From: a bacterium
GTDB lineage: Bacteria; Patescibacteriota; UBA1384; XYA2-FULL-43-10; JAKAMI01
Assembly: GCA_021812945.1 (NCBI GenBank)
Contig: JAKAMI010000002.1
Span: 1,047 to 65,046, forward strand
Reading direction: 5' to 3'
DNA length: 64,000 bases
Below are positions 1,317-56,282 of the stretch, piece after piece. A program made the translations under genes and the position numbers. The notes beneath the pieces are model-generated. The model saw only the letters and a list, made by a program, of their open reading frames with translations. It was not told the DNA's origin and made no database searches. Positions within the stretch are counted from its first letter, which is position 1. Every line of letters begins with the position of its first letter.

Positions 1317-2309
1317 TTAACGTCTAATTTTTTCCGCCATCTTGAAAAGCTGGTATTTTGTTTTGTTGAAAACCAGGTCGTAGCTACCCAGAAGATCGAC
1401 TTGACGGCCGCCGAACTGTTTTTTGAAGCGGGTTACTCCAGCCCATGGATGCTTGGGATTATTGTCCGGCGCGATGCCGAAGAAGTCGTATTCGACGCAT
1501 CCTTTGGTCTTGGCGTCTTTGATGATCTCCCAGTGCAGTTTGTAAGGCGCCATCAGCTCGCGGTGTTTACTGCTCGATCCGCCAAAGAGATAGGTCGCTC
1601 TTTTATCGTAGTAGGTGACAATGGCGGCGGCAAGGATAGTTGACTCGTTGACTCGTTGACTCGTGGATTCGTTACTCGATTCGTAATTTTGTACTTTTGT
1701 TGTTCCATTTGTACTTTCGTGAGGGGCGCGCGCTTCGCGCGCCAGGAACACTTGAACATAGTCCTTTTCTTTCAAAATGTCAACCAGTTTTTGGAAATAT
1801 TGTTCGTTGCGGTAGGTAATCTTTTGTCTCTTTGCCATGATTTGGTAGAGCTGAAAGAATTCGCGGACGGAATCGGTTTTTTCAATGATTATCCCGCTAC
1901 GCTCGGCAACCCTAATATTATATCTGCCTTTCGGTTTCATTTGTTCCAGAATCTCTGCCTCTGTCCGGTCGATATCGAGTATGAGCGTATGTTCGGGTTG
2001 CATCTCCTCAAAAGCCTTAATGTAGTCCGAAAGTCCCAAAGTCCCAAAGTCCTGAGTCGCCGGTATGTCAAACTCGGCGCGGCAGAAGATGGCTTTGTTT
2101 TCTGATGCGATATTTTTGATTTGTTTTAGATAACTTTGAGATTTGAGGTCTGAGACTTGAGATGCGCCCAACATGGGCGAATATAGCATCGACCATCCAA
2201 GTGGTAATTTCTTCTGCAGCAATAAAATACCGCTTACTCGGTAAGATTTTGAGTAGCCTGTTTTCAGTTTGAACTTTTCCCATTCCGGTGTCTGAAATAT
2301 TGATGACAT
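1317..2309 (-). CDS. FemAB/FemX-family peptidoglycan bridge aminoacyltransferase
   Basis: Motifs FQTPEWEKFK, MKPKGRYNIRVAER, YLFGGSS, YDFFGI and GVTRFKKQFGG; adjacent to murE. Start placed at ATG 2309, 7 nt after a TGn-TAAGAT -10 element. Confidence 0.85.
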   Translation of the reverse strand: MSSIFQTPEWEKFKLKTGYSKSYRVSGILLLQKKLPLGWSMLYSPMLGASQVSDLKSQSYLKQIKNIASENKAIFCRAEFDIPATQDFGTLGLSDYIKAFEEMQPEHTLILDIDRTEAEILEQMKPKGRYNIRVAERSGIIIEKTDSVREFFQLYQIMAKRQKITYRNEQYFQKLVDILKEKDYVQVFLAREARAPHESTNGTTKVQNYESSNESTSQRVNESTILAAAIVTYYDKRATYLFGGSSSKHRELMAPYKLHWEIIKDAKTKGCVEYDFFGIAPDNNPKHPWAGVTRFKKQFGGRQVDLLGSYDLVFNKTKYQLFKMAEKIRR

Positions 2310-2438
2310 TGGTTTCATCTTATCAAAAAAAGCCCCCGAAAGCGAGGAAGTCAAAAAACTTAGAACCCCGCGGGGAGCGGGGTTCGCAGTTGGGATCGGG
2401 GAGCAACGGAAGCGAGGAGATCTTGGCTGAGGAAATGG

Positions 2439-2708
2439 CTAGGTCTCTGCCGAGAAGTGGCAAGTAGGCGAATTGAGGGGAAGTACAACAAACCGGCCGA
2501 GATCGACGTGCTCGATTCCGTTGGTTCCCCCTGTAATCTTGAGCTTGGTTTTCCCCCCTAAATGGAGGGTGCCGGCACAGTGACCTTCGTGGACGATTTG
2601 ACCGCTGTCCGGGTCGATCATCATGACCATGCGCCGGCAAGATCCGCGGCAACGGAATTCCGGATTGTTGCAGGGTAATGCGTCCTTCATCGAAATCCCG
2701 ATAGTCAT
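2439..2708 (-). CDS. Hypothetical Cys/His-rich small protein (89 aa)
   Basis: GGAGGTGA Shine-Dalgarno before ATG 2708, inside ORF 2439..2939; followed by a GC hairpin and T-run near 2355-2388. Confidence 0.45.
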   Translation of the reverse strand: MTIGISMKDALPCNNPEFRCRGSCRRMVMMIDPDSGQIVHEGHCAGTLHLGGKTKLKITGGTNGIEHVDLGRFVVLPLNSPTCHFSAET

Positions 2709-3389: not shown

Positions 3390-4856
3390 ATGAAAGAGAT
3401 TAAAATATTGGCCATAGAAACAAGTTGCGATGAAACCTGCGCAGCCGTTATCATGGCTGCCTCCTCGCGAAAGTACAAAAACTACAAAAGTACAAACATT
3501 GGAGAATGCCCGGTCGTTTTGTCGAATGTGGTGAGTTCGCAGATCGACCTGCACGCAAAAACCGGCGGCATCGTGCCGGAGGTGGCGAGTCGAGCGCATA
3601 TAGAGGTGATCGTCCCTGTTATTCGCGAAGCGCTCATAATAGCAAACCCTAAACTCGAAATTCTAAACTCTAAAAAAATTCAAAAATCTAAAAATAAGAT
3701 CAGCGCTGTGTTAGAGAACAATTTAGTAATTCAGCAATACAGCAATGAAATTTCGGAAATGCTTTCCGAAATTACCCACATCGCCGTGACTTCCGGGCCG
3801 GGGTTGGTCGGGGCGCTGTTGGTAGGGTTTAACACGGCCAAAACATTGGCGTATTCGCTGAATATTCCCATCGTGCCAATTAACCATATTGAGGGACACA
3901 TTTACTCGGCGATGGCCTCTGTGCCTGTCATTGCTAGGGCCGGTGTTTCGGCCCGTGGCAATCTAGCAAAGGAGATTGCCAGGTCGCCCCTCCTCGCAAT
4001 GACAAAGGGAGGGGTCAACTTCCCCATCTTGGCTTTGACAGTCTCGGGTGGTCATACTTCGCTTACCATAATGAAAGACCATGGAGTCTATGAAAACATC
4101 GGCCACACCATAGATGATGCAGCGGGCGAGGCATTTGATAAAGTGGCCAAGTTATTGGGACTAGGCTACCCGGGAGGACCGGCTGTTTCTAAACTCGCTG
4201 AAGAGTTTAGAAACAGAATAATCAATAATCAAGAGACAATAACCAAACAAATTCCAAATTCTAAATCTCAAAATCTCAAACCGGACTTCCGGACTTCCGG
4301 ACTTTCGGACTCGGGACTTGTATTTCCCCGTCCGATGCTCAATTCGGGAAACTTTAACTTTTCTTTCTCAGGACTCAAAACCGCGGTTCTAAATATAGTC
4401 CATAGTCTAAAAGTCCAAGAGTCCAAAGGTGAAAATTCGAAGACTTTAGGACTTCCGAACTTTCGGACTCAGGACTGGCGACCGGAGGTCGCCTTCGCTT
4501 TTGAAGAGGCGGTGGTGGATGTGCTGGCGACCAAGACGATGAGAGCGGTACTTAAATACAAACCGAAAACCGTGGTTCTAGCCGGCGGGGTGGCGGCGAA
4601 TAATCGATTGAGATCAGAACTACAGGGAAGGATTGAGACATATAATCACGGTCATCCTGAACTTGTTTCAGGATCCCATGGTAGACTGGAGGATTCTTCG
4701 GCTGCGCCTCAGAATAATGTGTCGTTGTTGATGCCTCCTCCGGAAATGTGTGGGGACAATGCGGCCATGATCGGACTGGCGGCGTACTACCACATTTTCC
4801 GCGGAGAAACTCCAAAATGGCACGAAATAAGTCTTGATGCCAATGCAAAACTGTAA
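3390..4856 (+). CDS. tsaD: tRNA N6-threonylcarbamoyladenosine synthase TsaD with about six in-frame repeat insertions
   Basis: ILAIETSCDET, GGIVPEVASRAH, GPGLVGAL, NHIEGH, VSGGHT, DDAAGEAFDK, FSFSGLKT, GGVAAN, DNAAMI. Confidence 0.95.
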   Translation: MKEIKILAIETSCDETCAAVIMAASSRKYKNYKSTNIGECPVVLSNVVSSQIDLHAKTGGIVPEVASRAHIEVIVPVIREALIIANPKLEILNSKKIQKSKNKISAVLENNLVIQQYSNEISEMLSEITHIAVTSGPGLVGALLVGFNTAKTLAYSLNIPIVPINHIEGHIYSAMASVPVIARAGVSARGNLAKEIARSPLLAMTKGGVNFPILALTVSGGHTSLTIMKDHGVYENIGHTIDDAAGEAFDKVAKLLGLGYPGGPAVSKLAEEFRNRIINNQETITKQIPNSKSQNLKPDFRTSGLSDSGLVFPRPMLNSGNFNFSFSGLKTAVLNIVHSLKVQESKGENSKTLGLPNFRTQDWRPEVAFAFEEAVVDVLATKTMRAVLKYKPKTVVLAGGVAANNRLRSELQGRIETYNHGHPELVSGSHGRLEDSSAAPQNNVSLLMPPPEMCGDNAAMIGLAAYYHIFRGETPKWHEISLDANAKL

Positions 4857-4887: not shown

Positions 4888-7377
4888 ATGAAGAAAATTA
4901 TTTCAAAATCGTGGGAACCGGAAAAGTACGAGAAAAAGCTCTACTCTACTTGGGAATCGAAAGGTTATTTCAAACCGGAAATCAATCCGGAGGGTGAGCC
5001 ATACTCGATCATCATGCCGCCGCCAAACGCCAACGGCTCCCTGCACCTGGGGCATGCGGTTTTCGTGACTCTCGAGGACATTATGACCCGCTATGCCCGG
5101 ATGCAAGGCAAGGCTGCTTTGTGGCTGCCGGGCGCCGACCACGGCGGATTTGAAACTCAGATTGTATTCGAAAAAAAGCTGGAGAAAGAGGGCAAGAGCC
5201 GGTTCGGTATGGATCGTAACGAGCTTTACCGGATGATGTGGGATTTTAGCTTGGAAAATAAATCCGGGATGGAAGATCAGCTGAGAAAATTAGGCGCCAG
5301 CTGTGATTGGGATAGGGAAAAATTCACGCTGGATGAGGATATTGTCAAAATAGTCAACGAGACCTTTGTCAAATTATACAATGACGGACTGGTATATCAG
5401 GATCTACGGCCTGTCAACTGGTGCACCAAACACCAGACCTCGCTTTCCGATCTGGAAGTGAAATACGAGGAACAAACAGATCCACTCTACTTCGTCAAAT
5501 ATCAAATATCAAATATCAAATATCAAAAATATAAATCTAAAATCAAAAATTCAGAATACTTAACGATCGCGACTACAAGGCCGGAAACAATATTCGGTGA
5601 TACCGCAATCGCCGTCAGCCCAAACGATAAACGGTTTGCGGAATTGATCGGGTTAAGCGTGAAGATACCGTTGACCGAGATCGAGATTCCGGTCATTGCC
5701 GACAAAATGGTTGATCCGAAGTTTGGGACCGGCGCGGTTAAGATTACTCCGGCTCATGATCCGAACGACTTTGAAGCCGGCAAGCGCCACAATCTTGAGA
5801 TCAAAGAAGTCATAGATCAATACGGCCGGTTGAACGAAAAAGCCGAACCGTTCGCCGGATTAAAAATCTTCGAAGCCAGACGACAGGTGGTCGAGGCGAT
5901 GAAAGAAAAGGGCATTTTGGAAAAAGTCGACGAAAACTATATTCACACCGTCGGCAAGTGCTACAAATGCGGCGCGGTTATCGAACCGCGAGTCTCAAAA
6001 CAGTGGTATATCGCGGTCAACAAAAAGGGTAAAAAAAGCGGGAAAATATTAGCAAAAGACGCTCTGGAGGCGGTCAAAACCGGCAAGATCAAATTTGTCT
6101 CCGAAAAGTTTGAAAAGATTTTTTATCACTGGCTGACCAATATTCGCGACTGGAACATCTCGAGGCAGATCGTTTGGGGCATCAGACTTCCGGTTTGGTA
6201 CCGGAAGTCTAATATCAAAGATCAAATATCAAATGTCAAAAATGCAGATCAAAAATCTCAAAATGAAAATACAAAAAATGCGATAAGCACCCGCGAGGTG
6301 GGCTTTGACTCCTCGGGGGTGGGAGACGGTGAAGTAAGTGAAGTATATGTGGGGATAAATCCACCCGACGGCTGGATTCAGGAAACTGATGTGTTCGATG
6401 CCTGGTTTTCGTCCGGACAATGGCCCTTCGCCGCTTTGAAAGCGCAAAGCGGCTTGAGTTCAAAAGTCCAAAAGTCCAAAAGTCCAGAGTCGTCGGATGA
6501 TTATCAGAAATTTTACCCGACGGCGGTGATGGAAACCGGTTGGGACATCCTCTTTTTCTGGGTGGCGCGGATGATCATGCTGGGACTTTACGAGACCAGT
6601 CAAGTGCCTTTCAAAACCGTTTACCTGCACGGACTGGTGCGCGACAAAGACCGGCAAAAGATGAGTAAATCCAAAGGAAACGTCATTGACCCTCTCGGGG
6701 TGGCTGAGCAGTACGGCACCGATGCAGTGAGGCTGGCTCTGGTTTTCGGTACCTCGGCCGGTAACGACATTGTCATCTCCGAGGAGAAAATCCGCGGCAT
6801 GCGCAACTTCACCAACAAGATCTGGAACGCCTCTCGCTTTGTTCTGATTAACATTTCGGGTGGCGACATCGCGGCCGGAGAGGTCGGGGATATCAGAATA
6901 CAGAATACAGAGTACAGCTCGGAATATTTGACCGAAGCCGATCAACAAGTTCTTAAAGTTCATAAAGTTATAAAGTCGAAAGTTATCAAGTATCTTGAGA
7001 ATTATCAGTTTTCCCAGGCGGCTGAGCTTCTTTATGACTTTTTCTGGCACGACTTTTGCGACAGCTATATCGAAGCCAGCAAGCAGCAACTTGCTCCCCC
7101 TCGCGAAAGTACAAAAAAGGACACAAAAGTACAAAATTACAAATCAGAGATTGCCACGTCGCAGACTACTCGCCATGACGGTAACAATGAAACAATGAGA
7201 CAATGGGACAATGAAGTTTCTGAAAACACCAAAAAGGTCTTAATTAAAATTTTATCGGAAACCCTAGCCATGCTTCATCCCTTCATCCCCTTTGTCACCG
7301 AAGCCGTCTGGCAGGAGCTACGCGAAGTCTACTCCGAGCTTAAAAAGTCTATTATGATCTCTACTTGGCCGAAATAA
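4888..7377 (+). CDS. valS: Valine--tRNA ligase lacking the C-terminal coiled coil, with in-frame repeat insertions
   Basis: PPPNANGSLHLGHA (HIGH), GTGAVKITPAHDPNDF, DWNISRQIVWG, DILFFWVARM, KMSKSKGN. Confidence 0.96.
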   Translation: MKKIISKSWEPEKYEKKLYSTWESKGYFKPEINPEGEPYSIIMPPPNANGSLHLGHAVFVTLEDIMTRYARMQGKAALWLPGADHGGFETQIVFEKKLEKEGKSRFGMDRNELYRMMWDFSLENKSGMEDQLRKLGASCDWDREKFTLDEDIVKIVNETFVKLYNDGLVYQDLRPVNWCTKHQTSLSDLEVKYEEQTDPLYFVKYQISNIKYQKYKSKIKNSEYLTIATTRPETIFGDTAIAVSPNDKRFAELIGLSVKIPLTEIEIPVIADKMVDPKFGTGAVKITPAHDPNDFEAGKRHNLEIKEVIDQYGRLNEKAEPFAGLKIFEARRQVVEAMKEKGILEKVDENYIHTVGKCYKCGAVIEPRVSKQWYIAVNKKGKKSGKILAKDALEAVKTGKIKFVSEKFEKIFYHWLTNIRDWNISRQIVWGIRLPVWYRKSNIKDQISNVKNADQKSQNENTKNAISTREVGFDSSGVGDGEVSEVYVGINPPDGWIQETDVFDAWFSSGQWPFAALKAQSGLSSKVQKSKSPESSDDYQKFYPTAVMETGWDILFFWVARMIMLGLYETSQVPFKTVYLHGLVRDKDRQKMSKSKGNVIDPLGVAEQYGTDAVRLALVFGTSAGNDIVISEEKIRGMRNFTNKIWNASRFVLINISGGDIAAGEVGDIRIQNTEYSSEYLTEADQQVLKVHKVIKSKVIKYLENYQFSQAAELLYDFFWHDFCDSYIEASKQQLAPPRESTKKDTKVQNYKSEIATSQTTRHDGNNETMRQWDNEVSENTKKVLIKILSETLAMLHPFIPFVTEAVWQELREVYSELKKSIMISTWPK

Positions 7378-8293: not shown

Positions 8294-8477
8294 AAGACAG
8301 TCTTTTTGAAGATGTAAAGACTGTCTTTAAGACTCTCGAGATTAAAGTAAAGACAGTCTTCCAAAGCAGCGAAGACTGTCTTTTAGCGGGCAAAGCGATG
8401 ACAGTCTTCCATGGCAGCGAAGACTGTCTTTAGCAAACAGAGCAAAGACAGTCTTCCAAGGTAGCGAAGACTGTCTT
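8294..8477. repeat. Array of 8 palindromic AAGACWGTCTT units arranged in pairs
   Basis: Read directly; centre base alternates A/T. Other pairs at ~10075-10107, ~59021-59053 and in recG at ~55648-55683. Confidence 0.85.
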
Positions 8478-9432: not shown

Positions 9433-10059
9433 ATGATCGTAGAAACGTTGGCGAACATTGTGACTTGGGCGATTTCACACACCGGATACTGGGGTGTGTT
9501 TGGTTTAATGTTTTTCGAATCCGCCTGCGTGCCCATTCCTTCCGAAGTGATCATGCCCTTCTCCGGTTTTTTGGTCGTCTCCGGACAATTTTCCCTGATC
9601 GACGTCACTATCATTGGCGCCTTGGGAAACCTGGGCGGTTCGCTCCTAGCTTACTATGTGGGTTACAGGGGAGGACGTCCTCTGGTTGAGAAATACGGCA
9701 AATATATTTTGATTAGCCATCGCGACTTGGACCGGGCGGACCACTTTTTCCAGAAACACGGCGAAGTGACCACCTTCTTCTCCAGAATGCTGCCGATAAT
9801 CCGGACATTTATTTCTCTACCGGCGGGAATCGCCAGAATGGACATCAGGAAATTCATCATTTACACCTTTGCCGGAGCTCTGCCCTTTTCTTTCGCTCTG
9901 GCTTGGGCGGGAGTCAAGCTGGGGGAGCACTGGGGCGAGGTTAGAGACATTTTACACAAGTTCAATATTGTCATTGCAGTCGGTATTTTACTTTTTATTG
10001 CCTGGTGGATTTTAAGACACATTAAGAATTCAAAGTCCAAATCTCAAATCTCGAAATAA
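9433..10059 (+). CDS. DedA family membrane protein
   Basis: ESACVPIPSEVIMPFSG, FFSRMLPIIRTFISLPAGIARM. Confidence 0.93.
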   Translation: MIVETLANIVTWAISHTGYWGVFGLMFFESACVPIPSEVIMPFSGFLVVSGQFSLIDVTIIGALGNLGGSLLAYYVGYRGGRPLVEKYGKYILISHRDLDRADHFFQKHGEVTTFFSRMLPIIRTFISLPAGIARMDIRKFIIYTFAGALPFSFALAWAGVKLGEHWGEVRDILHKFNIVIAVGILLFIAWWILRHIKNSKSKSQISK

Positions 10060-10130
10060 TTCGGATGACAAACAAAGACAGTCTTCGCTGCCTTGGAAGA
10101 CTGTCTTTTGAATCAGTACGTGGGTGAAGG

Positions 10131-11436: not shown

Positions 11437-12456
11437 TTAACGCTTTTCCAAAACCTCGCCCAGGGCTTCCTGCCAGGGGCGCATGGTGAGGCCGTATTTA
11501 TTCAACTTGGCTTTGGTGAGGTAGGAGTAGGCCGGGCGTTTGGCGGGGGTGGGGTACTCGGCGGTGGCGATAGGTTTGAGACCTATTTTAACCTTCGACT
11601 GTTTAAAAATTTCCTTGGCAAAATCATACCAAGAAGCTTCGCCCTCGCCGGTGGCGTGGTAGATACCGTAGGGAAGAGGGGCATTGCTTGATTGTTTCAT
11701 CCTGCTCCGCTCTTCTGGAGCTATGAGGGACACGGTTGCTTCATTGTTGTCATCCTGAACTTGTTTCAGGATCTCTGCGTTTGAATTTTGGGACCCTGAA
11801 ACAAGTTCAGGATAACGGTTTCGGAAGATAATTTCAGCAATCACCCCAACCAGGTCGCCGGTGTAGGTGGGGGAGCCGATTTGGTCGCTGACGACCGAGA
11901 TTGAATCGCGTTCTTTGGCCAGTCTCAGCATCGTCTCAACGAAATTCGAGCCAGGATGACCCTGTGGCAACTCGCCGTAAAGCCAGGCGGTGCGTATAAT
12001 ATAATACTTGTCGCAGACTGCCTGAATCGCTTTTTCGCCTTCCAACTTGGTTTGGCCGTAGAAGTTGACCGGATCGGTCGGATCGTCCTCATTTATTGGG
12101 ACGTTACCGGTACCCGGGAAGACGTAATCGGTCGAAATATACAACAACGTCGTATCTTTTTCGGCGGCGATTTCAGCCAGGTTTTTGGTTCCGACGGCAT
12201 TCACTTTATAGCAAAGTTCCCGACCCTCACCCTCGGCCTTGTCGACCTGGGTATAAGCGGCGGCGTGAATAATGAAGTCGGGCTTTTCTCTTGACAAAAC
12301 CCGCTCAATCATCGTTTTGTCGGTAATATCCATCTCCTCGGAGTCAGTGAGTATTAGTTGGTAGTCAGTCGTCGGTTGTCGGTTGTCAGGGACCTGAAGT
12401 CGTTCGATCAATTTGTTCCCGAGCTGGCCCTTGGCGCCGGTGATTAGAATTTTCAT
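11437..12456 (-). CDS. rmlD: dTDP-4-dehydrorhamnose reductase with two in-frame repeat insertions
   Basis: MKILITGAKGQLG, HAAAYTQVDKAE, ISTDYVF, YGQTKLEGE, DQIGSPT, PAKRPAYS. The ORF-track extension to 12564 is repeat-derived. Confidence 0.93.
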   Translation of the reverse strand: MKILITGAKGQLGNKLIERLQVPDNRQPTTDYQLILTDSEEMDITDKTMIERVLSREKPDFIIHAAAYTQVDKAEGEGRELCYKVNAVGTKNLAEIAAEKDTTLLYISTDYVFPGTGNVPINEDDPTDPVNFYGQTKLEGEKAIQAVCDKYYIIRTAWLYGELPQGHPGSNFVETMLRLAKERDSISVVSDQIGSPTYTGDLVGVIAEIIFRNRYPELVSGSQNSNAEILKQVQDDNNEATVSLIAPEERSRMKQSSNAPLPYGIYHATGEGEASWYDFAKEIFKQSKVKIGLKPIATAEYPTPAKRPAYSYLTKAKLNKYGLTMRPWQEALGEVLEKR

Positions 12457-12462
12457 AAATGC

Positions 12463-12551
12463 TCCTTCGCAAATATACAAATCAAGCGAAAGTACAAATG
12501 GGCGTAGCGTTCTATTTGTACTTTTGTAAAATTTGTAGATTTGCGAAGGGG
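12463..12551. repeat. ~90-bp palindromic element CCTTCGCAAATCTACAAA...TTTGTAGATTYGCGAAGG (copy 1 of 6)
   Basis: Other copies at 14941-15052, 15913-16022, 20148-20238, 21548-21640 and 48461-48549. Confidence 0.85.
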
Positions 12552-12560
12552 AGAAGCTTT

Positions 12561-15823: not shown

Positions 15824-16096
15824 AGAACCTCCAAGGTTTTAAAATTTCAAAATCCAAATTTCAAATATCAAATAAAAGTCTAAAGTTCAAACGCCGAACA
15901 ATAAGTTACTTTTCCTTCGCGAATCTACAAATCTAGCAAAAGTACAAATAGCGAATAGCGTCCAATTTGTATTTTCGTAAAATTTGCCGTGCCTGCCGGC
16001 AGGCAGGTAGATTCGCGAGGGATCGAAACTTCTTGTTTCGATACTACCACCCTCTCTTTAATATTTCAACTCGAACTGTTATATTCAGAAGTAACT

Positions 16097-20141: not shown

Positions 20142-20252
20142 ACGTTTTCCCCTCGCAAATCTACAAATTTTACAAAAATACAAATTGCACGTCGCGCGTT
20201 ATTTGTACTTTTGCTAGATTTGTAGATTCGCGAAGGAGAGAGGAGTTTTGTC

Positions 20253-38842: not shown

Positions 38843-39338
38843 TTTGCCCCTCCCGACCGCAAGGCGGTCGCCCCCTCGCGAAATTACGAATAAAACACAA
38901 AAATACAAAAGCGCGAATAATTCAATCAACCCCAATTATACCCCAATCGATAGGAAAATAAACGGATTATGATCTTATTGTATAATTAAGTAGTTAGGGA
39001 CTGCATATTTTCCTAGCCTCGATAGTCTAAGTTATTTATGACCCACTTTTCTTGTATAATTTTAGGGCTGGTCGACGATCCAATGTAAAAAAATGCTTTT
39101 TCGTCCGTTTGTTTTTCTCTCGGCCACCCACTCCGTACCCTGCCTTCCGCACGAGCGACTCTCTAACGTCGTCCCTCGGCTCCAGGCGCCGGCCTTCGTA
39201 AAACAAACGATCTCAACGCATTTTTGTCATTATTATTTAGACGAGCTAACCAGGTTCTTAAAACCAACTTTACAAACTTTATTACTTTTTACTTTATAAC
39301 TTCATGAACTTTTAACTTTATAAATTTCAACTGATTCT

Positions 39339-43466: not shown

Positions 43467-43522
43467 AGAAAATCAAATTGGTCTAATTAGACTAATTGGT
43501 CAAATTGGTCTAATATTCAGGT

Positions 43523-44089
43523 ATGGGTGGTCACCAGGATCTGATAGTCTATCAGCAAGCGGTGCTGATTTTTGATCTCAACGTGCAGTTTTGCCGTCGG
43601 TTTTTGGACCCCATCAAAGATCGTCGAACTATCGAGCAAATGGAGCAAGCGTCTCGCAGTAGCAAGCAGAATATCGTTGAAGGCTCTCTTGGAAAAAGCC
43701 TGAAAATGAACATAAAGTTGACGGGAGTTTCACGGGCGTCGTACGGAGAATTGCTAGAAGACTACAAGGATTTTTTGCGGATACGGAATCTGAAGCTATG
43801 GCCCAAAGAAGATGAAAGAGTTCGGGAAATTCGAAGCATGCGTGTCCAAACCAATAAGGCAAATGAGTCTAATGCGGCCGATTGGTCCAATTGGACAAAT
43901 GATGCGGAAAGATTCGCCAATTTAATGGTAACTTTGATCTCTAAAGAGAACTATCTTTTGGATTGTCTTTTACGGTCTTTGGAAAACAAGTTTGTAACCG
44001 AGGGCGGTTGTGGTGAAAATTTGTTTAAGAAAAGGCTAGAGGAAAGGAATAGGACCAATAGGACAAATTGGTCCAATCGGGTCAATTAG
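43523..44089 (+). CDS. Four-helix-bundle protein (23S rRNA-IVP/bAvd-like, suffix-domain type)
   Basis: DLIVYQQA..RRTIEQMEQASRSSKQNIVEGS..VSRASYGELLEDYKDFLR..LENKFVTEGG..ENL. Confidence 0.85.
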   Translation: MGGHQDLIVYQQAVLIFDLNVQFCRRFLDPIKDRRTIEQMEQASRSSKQNIVEGSLGKSLKMNIKLTGVSRASYGELLEDYKDFLRIRNLKLWPKEDERVREIRSMRVQTNKANESNAADWSNWTNDAERFANLMVTLISKENYLLDCLLRSLENKFVTEGGCGENLFKKRLEERNRTNRTNWSNRVN

Positions 44090-44111
44090 TCTAATAGGTC
44101 AAATAAGACTA

Positions 44112-46187
44112 ATGGGTATTTTGGAGCAACTTAATCCTGAACAACGTGAAGCTGTGACCACCACCAGTGGTCCAGTTTTAGTGCTCGCGGGTGCAGGCAG
44201 CGGCAAAACTAGAGCGTTGACCTACCGGATTGCTTATCTGATTCAAGAAAAACGGGTTTCACCGTATTCGATACTAGCCGTGACCTTCACTAATAAGGCA
44301 GCGCACGAAATGAGTAACCGGGTTGCCCGCCTGCTCGCGTTTTCGTTGAATAAGACCAATTGGCCAAATGAGTCTAATTTGACCAATAAACTTCCTTGGC
44401 TGGGGACGTTTCACTCCATTTGCGTCAAAATTCTAAGACGCGAAGCCAACCACCTGGGTTACGAGCGCAGCTTCACTATCTACGACGATCAAGACCAGCA
44501 AGCGGTCATCAAAAAGATCTTACGAGATCTGCAGCTCGACCCTAAGAAAACTTCACCATCATCGATATCTTACTTTATCTCCGGGGCCAAAGCTGAACTT
44601 ATGACAGCGGCCGAATATACCAAGTATGCAACTTATGGCTTTCAGAAAATTGTCAGTGAGGTCTATTTCGCTTATGAAAAAGCTCTGAAGCGAGCCGAGG
44701 CAATGGACTTTGACGACCTAATTCTAAACTGCGTGCGCCTATTTCGTGAGTTCCCGGAGCTGTTAGAAAAATATCAGCGTCAGTTTCAATATATTTTAAT
44801 CGACGAGTACCAGGACACCAACCACGCCCAATACGTTTGGGCTAAATTGCTGGCTTCAGACCATCACAATATTTGTGTGGTGGGCGATGATTTTCAGTCG
44901 ATCTATTCTTGGCGCGGGGCGAATTTTCGCAACATTTTAGACTTCGGCAAAGATTATCCGGAAGCTAAAATTATCAAAATGGAGCAGAACTATCGCTCGA
45001 CCAAATCAATTCTGGGTGCGGCGCAGGGGGTGATAGAAAAGAATAAGGATCGAACCGACAAGAAACTTTGGACCGAGAACAAAGAGGGGGTGCCGGTAAC
45101 GGTTTTCGAGGCGGGGAGCGACCGTGACGAAGCGGACTTTGTCACTCGCGAAATTCGCGCTCTGAGAATGAACAGCCTAAATTACTCAGATTTTGCCATT
45201 TTATACCGTACTAATGCTCAGTCGCGGCAGTTTGAGGAGACTTTTATCCGCTACGGCATCCCGTACCAAATTATCGGCGGAGTCAGCTTCTACCAACGGC
45301 GCGAAGTGAAGGATGTCATCGCTTACCTGCGCTACATTCACAATCCGCGAGACCTGGTCTCGTTGGAGCGGATTATAAATGTACCGGCTCGGGGGATTGG
45401 GCCAAAAACAGCGGAGCTGCTTTTGGAAGTCAAAAGTCAAAAGTCAAAAGTCAAAAGTATGGAAGAGCTACCAGATAAGGTCAGAAAGTTTGAGGAGATG
45501 ATTACCAGTTTGCGTGAATACTATCAGAAACATTCCATAGTCGAGCTAATAGATACCTTGGCTCGAATGACGGGGTATAAGGATTATCTGCTGGACGGGA
45601 CGCCGGAGGGAGAGGCGAGGTGGGAAAACATTGAGGAGCTGATGAACATTGCGGCGGCACAAGCCGCCCCCTACGAAAATACAAAAGAAGGCACGAAAGT
45701 ACGAAAGTACAAATCTGGAGACGAACCGGTACCTCAGAATACCATTCCAGCCTCTCGCTCCGTCATTCCTGCGAAAGCAGGAATCCAGACTGGATCCCAG
45801 ATCGAGTCTGGGATGACGAGTAGCCGCGAGACGGATAATCAACTCGAGGAGTTTCTTGAGCGGGTTAGTTTGTATCAAGACTCGGAAAAATTGGACAAAG
45901 ACCGCGATGCGGTGGTTTTAATGACTTTGCACGCAGCCAAGGGCTTGGAATACGATACGGTTTTCATCGCCGGTCTGGAGGAAGGTATTTTCCCGCACTC
46001 CAGAAGCTTGACCGAAAAAGATCAGTTGGAGGAGGAGAGACGGCTTTGTTACGTCGGCATGACCCGGGCACAGAAAAGGCTATACCTGCTATATGCCCGC
46101 CAGCGGCTTTTTCATGGCAACATAATGGCGTCTCTCCCCTCAAGATTTTTGGGGGAAATACCAGCAGAGTTCACAGACATTCTGTGA
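44112..46187 (+). CDS. pcrA: ATP-dependent DNA helicase PcrA/UvrD with in-frame repeat insertions
   Basis: LNPEQREAV, AGAGSGKT, TFTNKAA, DEYQDTN, VGDDFQSIYSWRGA, QNYRS, TLHAAKGLE, EERRLCYVGMTRA. Confidence 0.95.
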   Translation: MGILEQLNPEQREAVTTTSGPVLVLAGAGSGKTRALTYRIAYLIQEKRVSPYSILAVTFTNKAAHEMSNRVARLLAFSLNKTNWPNESNLTNKLPWLGTFHSICVKILRREANHLGYERSFTIYDDQDQQAVIKKILRDLQLDPKKTSPSSISYFISGAKAELMTAAEYTKYATYGFQKIVSEVYFAYEKALKRAEAMDFDDLILNCVRLFREFPELLEKYQRQFQYILIDEYQDTNHAQYVWAKLLASDHHNICVVGDDFQSIYSWRGANFRNILDFGKDYPEAKIIKMEQNYRSTKSILGAAQGVIEKNKDRTDKKLWTENKEGVPVTVFEAGSDRDEADFVTREIRALRMNSLNYSDFAILYRTNAQSRQFEETFIRYGIPYQIIGGVSFYQRREVKDVIAYLRYIHNPRDLVSLERIINVPARGIGPKTAELLLEVKSQKSKVKSMEELPDKVRKFEEMITSLREYYQKHSIVELIDTLARMTGYKDYLLDGTPEGEARWENIEELMNIAAAQAAPYENTKEGTKVRKYKSGDEPVPQNTIPASRSVIPAKAGIQTGSQIESGMTSSRETDNQLEEFLERVSLYQDSEKLDKDRDAVVLMTLHAAKGLEYDTVFIAGLEEGIFPHSRSLTEKDQLEEERRLCYVGMTRAQKRLYLLYARQRLFHGNIMASLPSRFLGEIPAEFTDIL

Positions 46188-47397: not shown

Positions 47398-48499
47398 GGA
47401 AAAAGAGGTAGGGATAATCAAAATAAAAGTTACTGAAATCAAACAATTTCTGAGCGAAAATCAGACTTGGGCCAAGAAGAGTTTTGGCCAGCATTTTTTG
47501 GTTGACGAGAATGTTTTAAGCAAAATTGTGGCCACGGCCGAATTATCAAAATCAGATCGAGTCTTGGAGATCGGTCCGGGCTTGGGGGTCTTAACCGATC
47601 AACTAATTGAACGTGCAGGTGAAGTTGTAGCTATCGAAGCAGACCGGTTCTTAGCCAGTTGTCTGGCTAAGAAATATCAAACCCTACAACACGTCATTCC
47701 AGTGAAAGCTGGAATCCAGGGATTAGAAAAAACTGGATCCCAGATCAAATCTGGGATGACAGAGAAAGATGACTTTGGACTTTCAACTTTCAACTTTCAA
47801 CTAATTGAAGGTGACGCTTTGAAAGTCATCGACAGCCTGGAATTTAAAAGGGGATTTCGATCGAAACCTTATAAAGTGATCGCCAATATTCCATATTCGA
47901 TAACATCAAAATTATTAAGGCTGCTACTGGAAGAATATCAACCAACCTCAATCACTTTTTTGGTGCAAAAAGAGGTGGCGGAGAGGGTTTGCGCCAAGCC
48001 CGGTCGGATGAGCCTTTTATCATTATCCGTCCAATACTTCGGCACCCCGAAGATCATCGCCACCGTTCCGGCCGGAGCTTTCTGGCCACAACCAAAAGTT
48101 GAGTCAGCAATTTTGCACATCAAGTTGACCACGATACACACACCTGCCTGCCGGCAGGCAGGGAAATCAATTCACAGAGAGGACACAGAAAATTTAACCC
48201 TGCCCACCTCCGAGGAGTCAGAGCCCACCTCGGAGGTGTTTACGGGCAAAAATAATGAAACAATGAAACAATCTAGCAATGAGCTATTCAAACTGGCCAG
48301 AATCGGTTTAGGTTCCAAGCGGAAAATGCTGGCGCACAATTTATCGACCGGCTTAAGTCTTCCGCGGGAAGAAATTGTTGATATAATAAAATCGGTGGGA
48401 CTTAAGGAAACAGTCAGAGCGCAGGAGCTAAGCGTTAAGGAGTGGGAAGAATTATCACGCTCCCTCGCGAATCTACAAATTTGGCAAAAATACAAATAA
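47393..48499 (+). CDS. rsmA: 16S rRNA m6,2A dimethyltransferase RsmA/KsgA with repeat insertions
   Basis: KKSFGQHFL, VLEIGPGLGVLT, VIANIPYSIT, VQKEVAER, FWPQPKVES, KRKML, RAQELS. Start codon uncertain. Confidence 0.93.
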   Translation: MTEKEVGIIKIKVTEIKQFLSENQTWAKKSFGQHFLVDENVLSKIVATAELSKSDRVLEIGPGLGVLTDQLIERAGEVVAIEADRFLASCLAKKYQTLQHVIPVKAGIQGLEKTGSQIKSGMTEKDDFGLSTFNFQLIEGDALKVIDSLEFKRGFRSKPYKVIANIPYSITSKLLRLLLEEYQPTSITFLVQKEVAERVCAKPGRMSLLSLSVQYFGTPKIIATVPAGAFWPQPKVESAILHIKLTTIHTPACRQAGKSIHREDTENLTLPTSEESEPTSEVFTGKNNETMKQSSNELFKLARIGLGSKRKMLAHNLSTGLSLPREEIVDIIKSVGLKETVRAQELSVKEWEELSRSLANLQIWQKYK

Positions 48500-48574
48500 C
48501 ACTTCGCGTTCAATTTGTATTTTCGTAAGATTTGTAGATTCGCTAAGGATATAGAGGTCGCTAAGGAGGGGATT

Positions 48575-50777: not shown

Positions 50778-51488
50778 ATGAAAATCGATCAACCTGTCTC
50801 GATCATTATCAAGGCGTACAACGAAGAAGCCAATCTTGGCCGGGTCTTGAAAGTTTTGGCAAAAATCGATTGGATCGATGAAGTCATCGTGGTAAACGAC
50901 GGTTCTGAAGACGGGACAGCCGAAGTTGCCAAGAGTTTTGAAAATGATAAAATCCGCCTGGTTTCAAATCCGAAAAACCTCGGCATGGGCGGAGCTATGG
51001 CGACCGGTGTCAAAAATGCCAGACACAATCTCGTTTTATTTCTCGATGCCGATCTGGTGGGACTAACCGAACGGCATCTTTTGGCGATCTTGGCGCCCAT
51101 AATATTTACGAAGGAGGCCGATCTGGTTCTGGGAGTTTTTACTCTGAAGGATTTGTCTCACGATACCGGGACCAAGATCGCCAATCGCTTTTCTCCGCTT
51201 ATCTCCGGTCAGCGGGCGGTTTGGAAGTCGTGTTTGCCGGACCTGCAGAAAATCAGCGACAGCCGTTACGGCGCCGACCTTCTGATTGCCAAGCACATCC
51301 CCAAACAACGACGCGAGGTTGTGAAGCTGGAGGGTCTGTCTCAGGTAACCAAAGAAAAAAAGGCCAACGGCGACTTAATGAAAGCCATCCAAGCCAGAAT
51401 CAAAATGTACAAAGAAGTGATTGCAGTGATGGGGGAAAATAAGTCAAAAGTCAAAAGTAAAAATTTCAATTCAAAATTTAATAATTAA
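50778..51488 (+). CDS. Glycosyltransferase family 2
   Basis: IIIKAYNEE, VVNDGSEDGT, LFLDADL, SGQRA. Confidence 0.88.
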   Translation: MKIDQPVSIIIKAYNEEANLGRVLKVLAKIDWIDEVIVVNDGSEDGTAEVAKSFENDKIRLVSNPKNLGMGGAMATGVKNARHNLVLFLDADLVGLTERHLLAILAPIIFTKEADLVLGVFTLKDLSHDTGTKIANRFSPLISGQRAVWKSCLPDLQKISDSRYGADLLIAKHIPKQRREVVKLEGLSQVTKEKKANGDLMKAIQARIKMYKEVIAVMGENKSKVKSKNFNSKFNN

Positions 51489-51527
51489 TACTTGCAATTT
51501 TGACTTTTGACTTTTGAATTATCAATT

Positions 51528-53472: not shown

Positions 53473-53480
53473 TTGGGTCC

Positions 53481-53837
53481 ATGAAAAAGACTGAATTTGA
53501 ACAAATTCTTGAGGTGATATCGGATTTCCGCCAAATGGTCGCGGAAAAGTTTGAGGAACAAGATGCTAGATTTGAGAAAATTGATGCTAGATTCGAGAAA
53601 ATTGATGCTAGATTCGAGAAAATCGATTCTAGATTTGAAGACATTAACGACAGGTTCGACCAACAAGATGCCAAGATCAACAAGCTTTCTAAAGATATGA
53701 ATTGGGTCAAAGACATTCTGGATAGTCATACAGGCATGTTAAGGAGACTTGACGATGAACGACTGGCCGGTGTTTACCGAACGGATAGAATCGAAAAGCA
53801 AGTCGCTGATATGAAAAAACAGCTAAAACTGGCCTAG
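53481..53837 (+). CDS. Coiled-coil hypothetical protein with heptad (21-bp) tandem repeats
   Basis: (DARFEKI)n encoded by gatgctagattygagaaaatt repeats. Confidence 0.75.
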   Translation: MKKTEFEQILEVISDFRQMVAEKFEEQDARFEKIDARFEKIDARFEKIDSRFEDINDRFDQQDAKINKLSKDMNWVKDILDSHTGMLRRLDDERLAGVYRTDRIEKQVADMKKQLKLA

Positions 53838-53909
53838 TTGTTGCTGTGTTTGGTGATTTCCGCTTAGACAGCGGTTTTTTGTTTGGGTGATATTTGCTAT
53901 CATTTAGCC

Positions 53910-56282
53910 ATGACCGCTCTCAAACTTGATTCACCCATCCAATACCTAAAAGGTGTGGGGCCGAAGCTGGCTGAGAAATTAAAAAGGCTGGAAATAGAAA
54001 CTCCGGCCGATCTTTTGTACCATCTGCCGCGGACCTACATTGACTACTCGCAAACGGTCCCGATCAAATCCACCCGCATCGGCGATCTTGTCGTTATTAA
54101 AGGAAAAATATCGGATCTCAGCATCAAACGCACGCCGCGGAAATGGATGGCCATCGTCGAGTTTTTGGTATCGGATCATTCAGGCTCGATCAAAGTTGTC
54201 TACTTCAACCAGCCCTACCTCAAAGACACCTTTAAAAACGGCGAGGAACTCTATTTTTACGGTAAAATTAACTATGACTATTCCGGCTCGATTAAGTCTC
54301 TCAACAGTCCGGACTTCAGCCGCGAGCCGAAGATCGTACCCATTTACCCGGAAACAAAAAACGTCAACAGTAAATACCTAAACAAGTTAGTAGTCGGTTG
54401 TCTGTCGTCAGTTGACAGCGCCAGAGAATATTTGCCCGAGGAAATAAAAACTCAAGCTAAGCTGGTGAATATCGAGCAAGCCCTGAGGTTTCTCCACCAA
54501 CCGGCCAAAATGGCCGAGGTTGGGTCGGGGCGCCGGCGCCTAGCCTTTGACGAACTCTATTTAACGGCTCTGCAAACGCAAATTTTTCGACAACAACGTC
54601 GGGAGCAAAAGGCGGTACGGGTCAAGATTGATAACAAAGAGCTGGTAAGTTTTGTCGACCAGTTGCCGTTTAAACTAACCGCTGCCCAAAAAAGGGCGGC
54701 TTGGCAAATCTTGCTTGACCTAAGGGGTCAAACTAAGTCCGGAGTCCAAGAGTCCAAGAGTCCAAGAGGGAAGACTTCCGGACTTCCGGACTTTAGGACT
54801 TTGGACTGGATTCCTCCGATGAATCGGCTGCTCAATGGTGATGTCGGTAGCGGCAAGACGGTGGTGGCGGCTATGGCAGCCTATGCGGTCATAAAGGCCG
54901 GTTACCGAGTCATCGTCATGGCGCCAACCGAAGTATTGGCTTTTCAACATTACAACACCTTTCAAGAAATTTTGGCTAAATACGACATCAGTGTTGGCCT
55001 GGCGACAAGTTCTAGAAAGGAAACATCACTTTCTGTCATTCCTGTGAAAGCAGGAATCCAGACGAAGAAAACTACTGGATCCCGGATCAAGTCCGGGATG
55101 ACGGACAAAAACAATAAAACAATGAAGCAATTGAACCATGTTTTTGAGACATGTGACCTCCTGGTTGGTACCCATGCGGTACTAGAAGATACTTTTAATC
55201 ATGAAAAGGTGGCGCTGGTGGTGGTTGATGAACAACACCGGTTCGGAGTCGAGCAGAGGGCAAAGATACAAAGAATGACAAGCTCCAGGAACGTCATTCC
55301 AGCCCCTCATCCTGTCATTCCAGCGAAAGCTGGAATCCAGAAATCATCAAAAGCCACTGGATCCCGGATCAAGTCCGGGATGACAAATGAGGACAAAGGA
55401 ATCCAAGCTCACTTCCTTTCGATGACCGCCACACCAATACCAAGAACGCTGCAGCTGACGCTTTACGGCGACTTGGATGTTTCGGTCATCGATGAGATGC
55501 CGAAAGGGCGTAAAGAAATCGAGACTAAGGTTTTTGCCGATCGTGATCGTGAAAAAGCTTATGACCTCATTAGGGATCAGGTAAAGTTGGGGAGACAAGT
55601 GTTCATTGTCTGCCCCTTGATCGAGGAAAATCAGGAGCAAGGTGGGCAAAGACAGTCTTTGCAAAAGGAGCAAAGACTGGCTTTACCCGAATTAGATCGG
55701 AAAACAGTGGTAGCGGAACAGAAAAGACTCAAAGAACAGGTATTTCCGGACTTAAAGATTGGGCTAATGCACGGGAAACTCAAGCCCAAGGAGAAAGAAG
55801 TAGTGATGAATGAATTTACCAGTCGCAAACTAGATATATTAGTCAGTACCTCGGTGGTCGAGGTAGGTGTCGATGTGCCGAATGCCAGTGTGATGATGGT
55901 CGAAAATGCCGAAAGATTCGGCCTAGCTCAGTTACACCAGTTCCGCGGCCGGGTCGGTAGGGCGGAGCATCAATCTTACTGTTTATTAATGTCATCCAGC
56001 CCTCGTCCGGAAAACATCAAACGCTTGAAAGCTATGGAAACGCATGCTTCCGGGTTTAAGTTGGCGGAGATTGATTTGGAGCTTCGTGGACCGGGAGTTA
56101 TTTACGGCAAAGAGCAATCGGGCTTCGGTGACTTGAGGCTAGACTGGGTTTCTGATATATTTCTACTAGAGGAAGCGCGTGAAGCGGCCAAGAAAACACT
56201 GACCTTGAATCCGAGTCTGTCGTCCTGGCCGGGACTGCGAGAAAAACTTGGCGAGAAGTTCGGAGAAGCACATTTAGAATAA
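53910..56282 (+). CDS. recG: ATP-dependent DNA helicase RecG with four in-frame repeat insertions
   Basis: LKGVGPK, RRLAFDEL, MNRLLNGDVGSGKT, MAPTEVLA, VDEQHRFGV, MTATPIPRTL, AERFGLAQLHQFRGRVGR. Confidence 0.96.
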   Translation: MTALKLDSPIQYLKGVGPKLAEKLKRLEIETPADLLYHLPRTYIDYSQTVPIKSTRIGDLVVIKGKISDLSIKRTPRKWMAIVEFLVSDHSGSIKVVYFNQPYLKDTFKNGEELYFYGKINYDYSGSIKSLNSPDFSREPKIVPIYPETKNVNSKYLNKLVVGCLSSVDSAREYLPEEIKTQAKLVNIEQALRFLHQPAKMAEVGSGRRRLAFDELYLTALQTQIFRQQRREQKAVRVKIDNKELVSFVDQLPFKLTAAQKRAAWQILLDLRGQTKSGVQESKSPRGKTSGLPDFRTLDWIPPMNRLLNGDVGSGKTVVAAMAAYAVIKAGYRVIVMAPTEVLAFQHYNTFQEILAKYDISVGLATSSRKETSLSVIPVKAGIQTKKTTGSRIKSGMTDKNNKTMKQLNHVFETCDLLVGTHAVLEDTFNHEKVALVVVDEQHRFGVEQRAKIQRMTSSRNVIPAPHPVIPAKAGIQKSSKATGSRIKSGMTNEDKGIQAHFLSMTATPIPRTLQLTLYGDLDVSVIDEMPKGRKEIETKVFADRDREKAYDLIRDQVKLGRQVFIVCPLIEENQEQGGQRQSLQKEQRLALPELDRKTVVAEQKRLKEQVFPDLKIGLMHGKLKPKEKEVVMNEFTSRKLDILVSTSVVEVGVDVPNASVMMVENAERFGLAQLHQFRGRVGRAEHQSYCLLMSSSPRPENIKRLKAMETHASGFKLAEIDLELRGPGVIYGKEQSGFGDLRLDWVSDIFLLEEAREAAKKTLTLNPSLSSWPGLREKLGEKFGEAHLE

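Follow-up and report, generated by a model that had tools for sequence, protein, structure and literature searches.

In-frame palindromes within housekeeping genes, several families to a genome, are described from Rickettsia (PMC10969869, PMC3733652). Hairpin-forming repeats are also the substrate of small enzymes: RAYT (PMC3733652) and SsnA (PMC11893778) both cut single-stranded hairpin repeats, and the spreading of repeats by Ssn is put forward in the latter paper as a hypothesis, its main text naming neither Patescibacteria nor the Candidate Phyla Radiation (CPR). Heptamer repeats, for their part, are reported to have no accepted source (PMC4679880). Here we analyse a 64,000-nucleotide stretch of a bacterial genome (hereafter the window; C31:1047-65046 of the 912,456-base, 42-contig genome G000, assembly GCA_021812945.1), where short repeats sit both in spacers and, in frame, within core genes such as valS, tsaD and recG.

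The coding copies are probably translated leftovers of cassette arms that spread at the DNA level and were retained where reading frame and protein fold allow. Judged from gene content and arm sequences, the families belong not to one system but to what appear to be four cassette types: four-helix-bundle (families F, G and K; E, I and J in relatives), GxxExxY (family A), Ssn-like GIY-YIG (family C) and RAYT (family H, probably D). An initial annotation of this DNA had proposed a multi-family, stackable insertion system; multi-family, stacked and in frame it is, but four unrelated helper genes take the place of a single system.

Repeat copies inside core genes

The initial annotation listed ten motif families (A to J) and eight host genes. 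Each of the ten families is present in the window, and FemAB, TsaD, ValS, RmlD, DnaX, PcrA, RsmA and RecG are confirmed as members of the named protein families, with open frames. Family motifs are intact in ValS (HLGH and KMSKS), TsaD (HIEGH) and RecG (GDVGSGKT and DEQH). Compared with 5-27 orthologues each, the eight genes show 25 longer segments with 566 excess residues, nearly all of them consisting of the listed repeat families; the segment at ValS 378-385 is instead a lineage-level indel, common to close homologues, and contains no repeat. TsaD exceeds its shortest compared orthologue by 117 residues. The earlier estimate of roughly 25 coding copies is correct for sites but too low for copies, as the eight genes hold 41 pattern matches, the arms of a doublet being counted separately. 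DnaX does carry copies, in a variable linker, but the protein (517 aa) is no longer than its five orthologues (523-572 aa). Missing from the first list were a 9-mer family in pcrA (here K), an ACTTTCA 7-mer in rsmA and two further hosts, a Phd-domain gene (10131-11171) and a glycosyltransferase gene (21668-22672).

The orthologues aligned were 13 of 13 for FemAB, 26 of 29 each for TsaD and ValS, 9 of 9 for RmlD, 27 of 29 for RecG and 5 of 5 each for DnaX, PcrA and RsmA, the unused ones being partial or N-containing. A metagenome scan with RecG gave 32-42% identical genes only, which were left out of the comparisons. The best named homologue of ValS is from Candidatus Berkelbacteria (64% identity), and named matches are mostly Patescibacteria, which points to a likely Berkelbacteria-like member of the CPR; the nearest relatives are 60-72% identical in ValS, none above 72%. 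The copies inside genes are given below in window coordinates, with fold z-scores (z), residues gained and, for one copy, AlphaFold confidence (predicted local distance difference test, pLDDT).

femAB, 1635..1739, minus strand: family A arm plus 8-mer array, +25 aa
femAB, 2024..2052, minus strand: family F array, length unchanged; orthologues have ordinary codons or a different 7-mer family there
tsaD, 3453..3509, plus strand: family A arm, +13 aa
tsaD, 3645..3770, plus strand: G-type 7-mers and E-type 8-mers, +30 aa
tsaD, 3912..4019, plus strand: C-like palindromic doublet variant, +19 aa, pLDDT below 50
tsaD, 4212..4316, plus strand: G then F arrays, +21 aa
tsaD, 4407..4478, plus strand: family F, both arms, weak hairpin (z -1.9), +16 aa
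tsaD, 4623..4727, plus strand: family C variant (PELVSGS peptide), +24 aa
valS, 5495..5556, plus strand: family G single arm, no hairpin, +17 aa
valS, 6202..6342, plus strand: G arrays and family D hairpin, +43 aa, a hot spot
valS, 6448..6498, plus strand: family F inverse arm, +13 aa
valS, 6894..6917, plus strand: 7-mer array, no length gain
valS, 6943..6993, plus strand: family J array within predicted helix 683-704, length-neutral
valS, 7093..7224, plus strand: stack of A arm, C-like piece and E array, +37 aa
Phd-domain gene, 10251-10284 and 10800-10829, minus strand: two family I arrays in a low-complexity part
rmlD, 11668..11850, minus strand: family C variant doublet and E, +37 aa
rmlD, 12355..12417, minus strand: family I array, +9 aa
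glycosyltransferase gene, 22423..22458, plus strand: GCTGT 8-mer array, its core equal to the downstream arm of the C18 four-helix-bundle gene
dnaX linker, 40424..40562, plus strand: A arm, D hairpin and E array, no excess over orthologues
pcrA, 44337..44387, plus strand: family K array, +8 aa, matching the arms of the adjacent upstream cassette
pcrA, 45427..45458, plus strand: family G array, no length gain
pcrA, 45669..45842, plus strand: A arm and family C doublet, +45 aa
rsmA, 47666..47802, plus strand: family C doublet and ACTTTCA 7-mer array, +35 aa
rsmA, 48122..48282, plus strand: stack of B, 9-mer, D hairpin and E array, about +38 aa
gene 50778-51488, 51441..51517, plus strand: family G hairpin spanning the stop codon
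recG, 54381..54425, plus strand: family I in reverse orientation, ungapped alignment, length-neutral
recG, 54720..54815, plus strand: family F, both arms, hairpin (z -4.9), +27 aa, cores equal to the C1 four-helix-bundle arms
recG, 55020..55157, plus strand: family C doublet (z -4.9) and E array, +40 aa
recG, 55269..55406, plus strand: second family C doublet, +38 aa
recG, 55629..55682, plus strand: lone family H palindrome, +10 aa

The similarity of coding copies to intergenic copies or cassette arms is found at the nucleotide level. When 12 copies were tested, no more than 10 of 1000 synonymous recodings attained it for 11 of them, and no more than 4 of 3000 random coding windows did so for any of the 12; the family A match in PcrA is weak, with 57 of 1000 synonymous recodings reaching it. 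Genome-wide, where all counts depend on a set of 808 genes called with a hexamer model of its own, arrays within called genes number 50 of period 7 and 29 of period 8. Three codon shuffles gave 0, 0 and 0 for each of these periods, and control periods of 5, 6, 11 and 13 gave 0 to 3 within genes. The genes dnaB, rmlA, rmlB, rmlC and galU, which had been described as clean, return zero matches in the pattern scan. That the coding families also fill spacers is true of most, but family E has 9 coding copies, 1 at a gene edge and 0 intergenic in this genome (by its own pattern), and family I 5 coding copies to 1 intergenic. B and H are mostly intergenic, with one credible coding copy each in the window. 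In comparison with the related genome G023, used as pairwise reference, the present genome has 54 additional segments of at least 8 residues, an element being detected in 31 of them, and G023 has 15 of its own.

Logan contigs from four DNA runs cover most inserts of 39200-58000 in long pieces, with 0-2 differing letters; the four runs are one study, possibly the source of the assembly, and the recG doublet near 55062-55357 lies between listed pieces. Joints in these contigs connect repeat copies across the stretch, and none of those listed cleanly removes one insert, a result silent on excision because contigs lose rare variants.

Candidate source cassettes of the repeat families

The genome encodes 12 four-helix-bundle proteins (TIGR02436), 1 GxxExxY protein, 3 small GIY-YIG proteins and 5 Y1 HUH proteins. 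In the cassettes a single small gene lies between mirror-image arms, while gene-less two-armed copies and single arms are dispersed in spacers and genes. Nine of the ten families can be tied to a helper gene, firmly or tentatively.

Short-period (7- to 10-base) arrays flank 11 of the 12 four-helix-bundle genes, with a unit that differs per gene: family F on contig C1, G types on C6 and others, the ACTTTCA type of rsmA on C39, family K around the window gene at 43523 and a 10-mer around that at 57258. The twelfth gene belongs to a remnant of a diversity-generating retroelement (DGR; G000:C8:3953-8060, L513 and L514), which comprises a frameshifted reverse transcriptase, an Avd-like gene and, on the opposite strand, a template-like repeat that shares about 80% identity with the ends of two target genes in the neighbourhood. 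A second reverse-transcriptase gene, with an open frame of 325 aa, lies at C26:5001-5621 (L512). The fold of the whole cassette at 43460-44115 is modest (z -2.0), its 9-mer arms being partly self-complementary. One four-helix-bundle gene (C16:1378-1698, between atpG and atpD-like genes) has an internal stop and keeps both arms, and about ten listed homologues in relatives also contain stops; stop-bearing genes with arms fit what is expected of decaying selfish cassettes.

The GxxExxY gene (contig C19) is flanked by family A arms, and the 93-base family A hairpins of the window are those arms minus the gene. There are 14 gene-less two-armed copies in the genome, two of them with family B inside, and the closest retains the first two codons of the gene. 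The hairpins thus resemble MITEs (transposable elements of the miniature inverted-repeat kind) in sharing terminal inverted repeats with a gene-bearing element whose interior they have lost (14 hairpins to one cassette). They depart from MITEs in the enclosed gene, which is no known transposase; it belongs to PF13366 / TIGR04256, has a PD-(D/E)XK nuclease fold and matches no transposase family. No consistent target-site duplication was seen by eye in the hairpin flanks, in a comparison from which empty alleles are absent.

Two GIY-YIG genes (C21, C6) are flanked on both sides by C-type palindromes. In a tree of 69 such genes (72 examined; 91 columns, deep forks weak), a clade of 16 has support 100/96, and 14 of its members have CGTC-type palindromes on both sides, against 1 of the 53 outside it. 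GIY-YIG genes as a whole are not arm-bounded (only 5 of 26), the palindromes being confined to one clade. tRNA-like sequence adjoins 32 of the 69, and many of those outside the palindrome clade abut tRNA genes directly. Upstream of one GIY-YIG gene in a relative (L203, G031:C9), family B lies inside an apparently duplicated tRNA 5' end.

The RAYT gene on C30 lies between family H arms, and family D resembles, without being identical to, the arm on C25; 0 to 4 of 500 shuffles reach either match. Against the RAYT profile NF047646 (cut-off 80), the C30 gene scores 80.4 bits and the C25 gene 53.9, under the cut-off. In relatives (L452-L460, L468-L470), a RAYT subfamily is bracketed by conserved GGGGACGGTTCT arms, which fits the TIRtron motif (PMC3733652). 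DUF559, considered as a further helper, has 0 members in the genome.

The arrangement recurs in relatives, where 71 of 84 four-helix-bundle genes (of 88 retrieved, 4 could not be used) and 23 of 27 GxxExxY genes lie between inverted arms. At the same score and in similar windows, such arms surround 25 of 726 ordinary genes of the present genome. Among the 84 four-helix-bundle cassettes, E arms occur at 3 and J arms at 5; I-like arms were seen by eye only (L124, L144). Spacer repeats and cassettes in the window are as follows.

8294..8477, intergenic: family H array, matching the arms of the C30 RAYT gene
10059..10107, intergenic: family H doublet
12462..12554, intergenic: gene-less family A hairpin, 93 nt, z -8.8, with both GxxExxY-cassette arms and its first two codons
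14942..15050, intergenic: gene-less family A hairpin, split at 15021 by family B
15913..16021, intergenic: gene-less family A hairpin, split at 15992 by family B
20149..20241, intergenic: gene-less family A hairpin
21550..21642, intergenic: gene-less family A hairpin
25544-25587 and 25902-25945, intergenic: two family D hairpins
39266..39327, minus strand: family J array in the spacer directly upstream of dnaX
42397-42452, 42913-42946 and 56935-56957: further J arrays
43476..44112, plus strand: four-helix-bundle cassette, gene 43523-44089 (TIGR02436, TIGR04258) flanked by family K 9-mer arrays, the right arm reaching into the pcrA start codon
47323..47398, intergenic: family C doublet reaching up to the rsmA start, with a further copy at 50733-50760
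48461..48553, overlapping the rsmA stop: gene-less family A hairpin
57160..57840, plus strand: four-helix-bundle cassette, gene 57258-57761 (PF05635, TIGR02436) flanked by 10-mer arrays, behind a tRNA gene

More spacer repeats, at 27406-27468, 60980-61020 and 36309-36345, comprise tandem AGGATGAC units (C-related) and a CACAGAT/CACTGAT 10- to 11-mer resembling the GxxExxY arms of relatives. An Rfam search found only two tRNAs. Elsewhere in the window, a 125-base direct repeat (86%; 22550-22674 and 27464-27588) that copies a glycosyltransferase gene's end brackets about 5 kb, an ISL3-family transposase lies at 28394-29611, and a pilus ATPase gene (36365-38935) has a long N-terminal extension that looks HU/IHF-domain-like by eye. 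An in-frame 21-base tandem repeat in a small coiled-coil gene (53550-53659) has a period of 3n, unlike the families studied here.

Reading frame of the coding copies

Family G copies run 26 sense, their stop-poor orientation, to 1 antisense in genes, compared with 18 to 25 in same-strand spacers. Arrays with at least two sense-strand stop triplets number 12 of 79 in genes versus 52 of 80 in spacers (p 1e-10), and, counted in any frame, 2,428 bases of coding arrays contain 49 of these triplets and 2,436 bases of spacer arrays 199. Taken modulo 3, the spans of family C doublets divide 6/3/15 in genes and 23/17/17 elsewhere (p 0.02), a preference for one class that is seen in genes only. No repeat-caused gene break occurs among 415 reciprocal best pairs with G023, a test limited to genes on its fetched stretches, and the statement that no copy breaks the frame is borne out to that extent. 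Two-armed coding copies of F, C and D fold with z -3 to -5, except for the tsaD F copy at only -1.9, and single-arm copies of A and G form no hairpin.

Because removal at the RNA level would impose no selection on reading frame, the coding copies argue against it: stop avoidance, strand bias, length-class bias and the absence of repeat-broken genes together suggest that they are likely translated, far likelier than removed. The idea that inserts are removed or skipped at the RNA level, entertained in the initial annotation, is not supported, given the same four observations and the unfolded single arms.

The 415 pairs include two candidate split genes. The gatA split (C6:23934-23946) is an apparent one-base frameshift in an A run with no nearby repeat, from assembly error or slippage. 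A MacB-type pair proved to be two genes with a heptamer hairpin between them, and separate ATPase and permease genes of this type are common. Six suspect orthologue loci resolved into two N-gap splits, one G run, one contig end, one internal stop away from inserts and one intact gene, and a scan for upstream coding sequence returned 5 candidates, none of them split.

Length-neutral copies, hot spots and fold tolerance

Among 62 coding arrays measurable against G023, 17 add at most 3 residues, 11 add 4-9 and 34 add at least 10. The valS segment at 6943-6993 is 26 aa long in 51 of 51 homologues, with the J array in predicted helix 683-704, and none of 1000 synonymous recodings or 3000 random windows resembles the J arrays of spacers as closely as this array does. 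For the reverse family I copy of recG (54381-54425), the match is reached by 0 of 1000 recodings and 1 of 3000 windows. At femAB 2024-2052 the present genome has family F; 3 of 13 orthologues show clear 7-mer arrays belonging to different families, ordinary codons stand there in most, and the segment measures 19-21 residues in 11 of the 13. As these alignments indicate, several copies are not plain insertions, and some seem to replace codons in helices; one-step replacement and insertion with compensating deletion cannot be told apart here.

Tolerated surface loops, the alternative to RNA-level removal in the earlier account, describe the inserts in part: protein cores are predicted with confidence and inserts with low confidence, but the description is incomplete, as some copies lie in helices. 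The AlphaFold model of ValS has a mean pLDDT of 86, falling below 50 only at 449-482, 524-535 and 748-763; that of TsaD has a mean of 77 and is low at 32-37, 99-108, 178-207 and 294-306, with low values at inserts partly reflecting shallow alignment there. A gene may have up to six sites with stacked families. Some sites are hot spots, ValS 439-485 being expanded in 17 of 26 orthologues and TsaD 275-309 in 18 of 26, and the fillers in orthologues are peptides of the same families in other combinations. Across related lineages, unrelated families reuse sites. By contrast, ValS 207-226 is nearly private, a single residue standing there in 46 of 51 homologues. In some ValS homologues (P0008, P0009, P0012, P0016, P0018, P0022, P0023 and P0028), the two hot-spot loops are occupied by entire foreign domains of 100-150 residues. 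Outside the window, gyrB (C30:19948-22596) carries a 152-residue insert that begins with Cys and ends with His-Asn, as a mini-intein would.

Distribution among genes and genomes

Of the 412 genes with a G023 orthologue 63 carry an element, as do 14 of the 342 that lack one; divided otherwise, the bearers are 63 of 523 genes for soluble and 14 of 231 for predicted membrane proteins. The reported skew towards nucleic-acid and translation enzymes holds among conserved genes: of those with names, genes handling DNA, RNA or translation (classes assigned by hand from Pfam names) make up 36 of the 52 element-bearing and 17 of the 47 control genes (Fisher p 0.001). The control is a random 60 of 245, and genes nameless in Pfam were dropped (11 of 63 and 13 of 60); retaining them gives p 0.002. 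Intragenic repetitive extragenic palindromes (REPs) of the GTAG and CGTC types are likewise described as favouring replication, repair and tRNA genes (PMC3733652). Likely causes of the skew are long residence and tolerance of basic, serine-rich peptides. The more four-helix-bundle genes a genome has per Mb, the heavier is the array load in its valS, recG and tsaD (rho 0.54 for 30 genomes, which are not independent where they are kin).

Proposed mechanism and alternatives

For arms to have been left in genes in this way, the RAYT, Ssn-like and GxxExxY nuclease types would nick hairpin-forming single-stranded DNA, and a released arm would be joined or copied into a break or replication gap through short-homology repair. 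Retention of the target DNA would yield an insertion, and loss of some of it a patch replacement. A first copy would then create a tolerant, hairpin-rich landing site on which families could stack. The weakest step concerns the four-helix-bundle protein, which is no known nuclease and would need a partner in trans; the GxxExxY role is suggested by its nuclease fold and the gene-less copies. More tentatively, and with some doubt on our part, four-helix-bundle and GxxExxY genes could constitute undescribed transposase-free mobile cassettes whose periodic arms are written as insertions and codon-replacing patches, even in helices.

A number of results weigh against a cassette origin. The family I pattern matches 0 of the 84 relatives' cassettes, F and K arms were found in the cassettes of this genome only, and family B, often nested in other elements, is without a partner gene. 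The strict form of the published SRM pattern has no match near the C21 or C6 GIY-YIG genes, whose arms are a variant of it. Total length excess does not follow the number of helper genes (rho 0.04 to 0.21, without significance), and inserts are long in G017, yet no four-helix-bundle or GxxExxY gene was found in it. Five of the 17 zero-gain arrays face an equal or longer G023 segment with repeat-like peptides by eye and may be matched unrelated insertions. The open frame of coding copies is partly true by definition. With relatives 60-72% identical in ValS, no filled and empty allele pair, target duplication or exact boundary can be read, and arms could be local tandem expansions instead of mobile ends.

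This last possibility can be extended to all 7- and 8-base arrays, which would then be microsatellites grown in place by slippage, with only B, C, D and H mobile and the four-helix-bundle link a matter of shared context. Heptamers are described as the commonest long simple repeats in bacteria, with slippage as the proposed cause (PMC4679880), units do drift within arrays, and slippage plus deletion could yield length-neutral patches. We nevertheless regard local slippage as unlikely: shared cores turn up at numerous unlinked loci and in pairs of inverted arms, recG and tsaD carry both F arms as a hairpin, family A retains a non-periodic head and the first codons of its gene, and synonymous recodings fail to reproduce the matches. 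A quite unlikely route, which would explain the length-neutral patches directly, is writing from RNA to DNA, in which an Avd-like four-helix-bundle protein binds a stem of the cassette RNA and helps a host reverse transcriptase copy the arm over its target. Such patches do occur in structured segments, the cassettes are oriented with transcription inside operons, and of the two reverse-transcriptase loci one is a frameshifted DGR with an Avd-like gene that scores weakly with TIGR02436; the four-helix-bundle fold is homologous to that of Avd from DGRs. Yet among the neighbours listed for the other 11 cassettes there is no reverse transcriptase, no insert has a template and target pair, 45 of the 62 arrays do add length, and the RAYT and Ssn families already possess DNA-level enzymes.

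The remaining explanations carry still less weight. If inserts were adaptive, with basic, serine-rich tails selected in nucleic-acid enzymes or messenger RNA (mRNA) hairpins tuning expression, the persistence of the gene skew among conserved genes would be accounted for; orthologues, however, have nothing or unrelated peptides of any length at the same site, which tolerance fits better, and we judge adaptation very unlikely. Highly improbable, too, is that inserts are cut from or skipped in mRNA like ribosomal RNA (rRNA) intervening sequences, leaving mature proteins without them. The strong folds of two-armed copies (z -3 to -9) and the Pfam name of the four-helix-bundle family, first described in 23S rRNA intervening sequences, speak for it. 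Excision of an intervening sequence leaves the RNA unjoined, however, and would kill an mRNA. Excising length-neutral copies would also delete conserved structure, N gaps or a G run account for the split orthologues, coding A and G copies with one arm are unfolded, and the stop, strand and length-class biases and the 415 unbroken pairs point the same way. An assembly artefact, conceivable in a 42-contig assembly where repeats can mis-join, has a negligible probability, given that separately assembled contigs of four runs reproduce the sequence, each copy differs in sequence, and orthologues from about 30 other genomes show the same pattern.

A cassette origin would connect ten repeat families that seem unrelated with named genes of a single genome, and four small proteins would suffice to test it. 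The libraries searched give no function for GxxExxY and TIGR02436 proteins. If four-helix-bundle and GxxExxY genes do form mobile cassettes in the tentative sense above, they would be the source of the 7- and 8-base repeats of bacteria that have long lacked an explanation, and a mutator that constantly rewrites proteins encoded by core genes of Patescibacteria. For a reduced genome the load, 63 of 412 conserved genes, is striking. Length-neutral replacement in a conserved helix, should it happen in one step, would be a protein change unlike point mutation or loop insertion. Inserts of this kind also distort alignments and trees of CPR marker genes.

Comparison with known systems

Part of what is described here is already published, namely in-frame palindromes, the skew towards certain enzymes, and the RAYT and Ssn pairings, GIY-YIG with CGTC included. 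We found no published account of four-helix-bundle or GxxExxY genes as cassettes bounded by arms and accompanied by copies lacking the gene, of the CPR load or of replacement without length change, in a search of main texts that took in few subscription papers and of which one blank query had missed an existing paper; Di Nocera Additional file 3 and Chenal Supplementary Data could list CPR entries, which limits this negative.

Family C fits the definition of CGTC-tagged REPs, with a CGTC/TGTC tag, an 8-9 bp stem starting with AT, a 4-5 base loop and a CCA-like tail, and occurs mostly as inverted dimers (81 doublets in the genome, 24 in genes). The account of CGTC REPs in Di Nocera 2013 (PMC3733652) reports, in its descriptions of these families, no partner gene and covers neither Patescibacteria nor tandem-arm families. 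A small single-domain GIY-YIG gene flanked by palindromes, as on C21 and C6 here, is the arrangement described for Ssn (Chenal 2025, PMC11893778). For the C21/C6-type proteins Pfam gives GIY-YIG only and NCBIfam nothing. The published SRM pattern has 43 matches in the genome, against 2, 5 and 6 in Markov controls, with 6 copies in the window; 16 of the 43 lie in genes, where the figure reported for Neisseria NTS is 2% (PMC11893778). Family H, and probably D, parallel the REPtrons and TIRtrons described in PMC3733652, in which a Y1 HUH gene sits between inverted repeats and gene-less copies exist; the tag of the GTAG-type REPtron is absent from the C30 and C25 arms, and these two classes account for two of our families only.

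For the tandem families the nearest parallels are heptamer repeats, of which cyanobacterial short tandemly repeated repetitive (STRR) sequences are another direct-repeat case. The TAACTGA heptamers of Beggiatoaceae form arrays at gene junctions and, as here, occur within genes in the stop-free orientation only (PMC4679880). Their coding copies are described as lying mostly at protein ends or in hypothetical genes, whereas those studied here are deep in core enzymes and their units are paired around cassette genes; the main text of that report mentions no four-helix-bundle, S23, intervening-sequence or GxxExxY genes. The 23S rRNA intervening sequence with a PF05635 gene shares with our cassettes a gene of the same family within a stem of pairing flanks, the 57258 gene scoring above the PF05635 and TIGR02436 cut-offs and the 43523 gene above that of TIGR02436 only. 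Unlike those intervening sequences, the cassettes lie between protein genes or behind a tRNA gene, and their arms are periodic.

The closest likeness remains that to the Rickettsia palindromic elements, which the initial annotation had drawn and which in-frame insertion into unrelated housekeeping genes confirms. There as here, several palindromic families lie in frame in one genome, and RPE-4 and RPE-6 are assigned, like family C, to the CGTC superfamily. The Rickettsia elements are about 150 bp long and encode one conserved peptide; the units here range from 12 to about 95 nt, and the single arms of A and G are unfolded. Beyond this, half of the present families are tandem 7- to 10-mers, their likely source cassettes reside in the same genome, and some copies are length-neutral.

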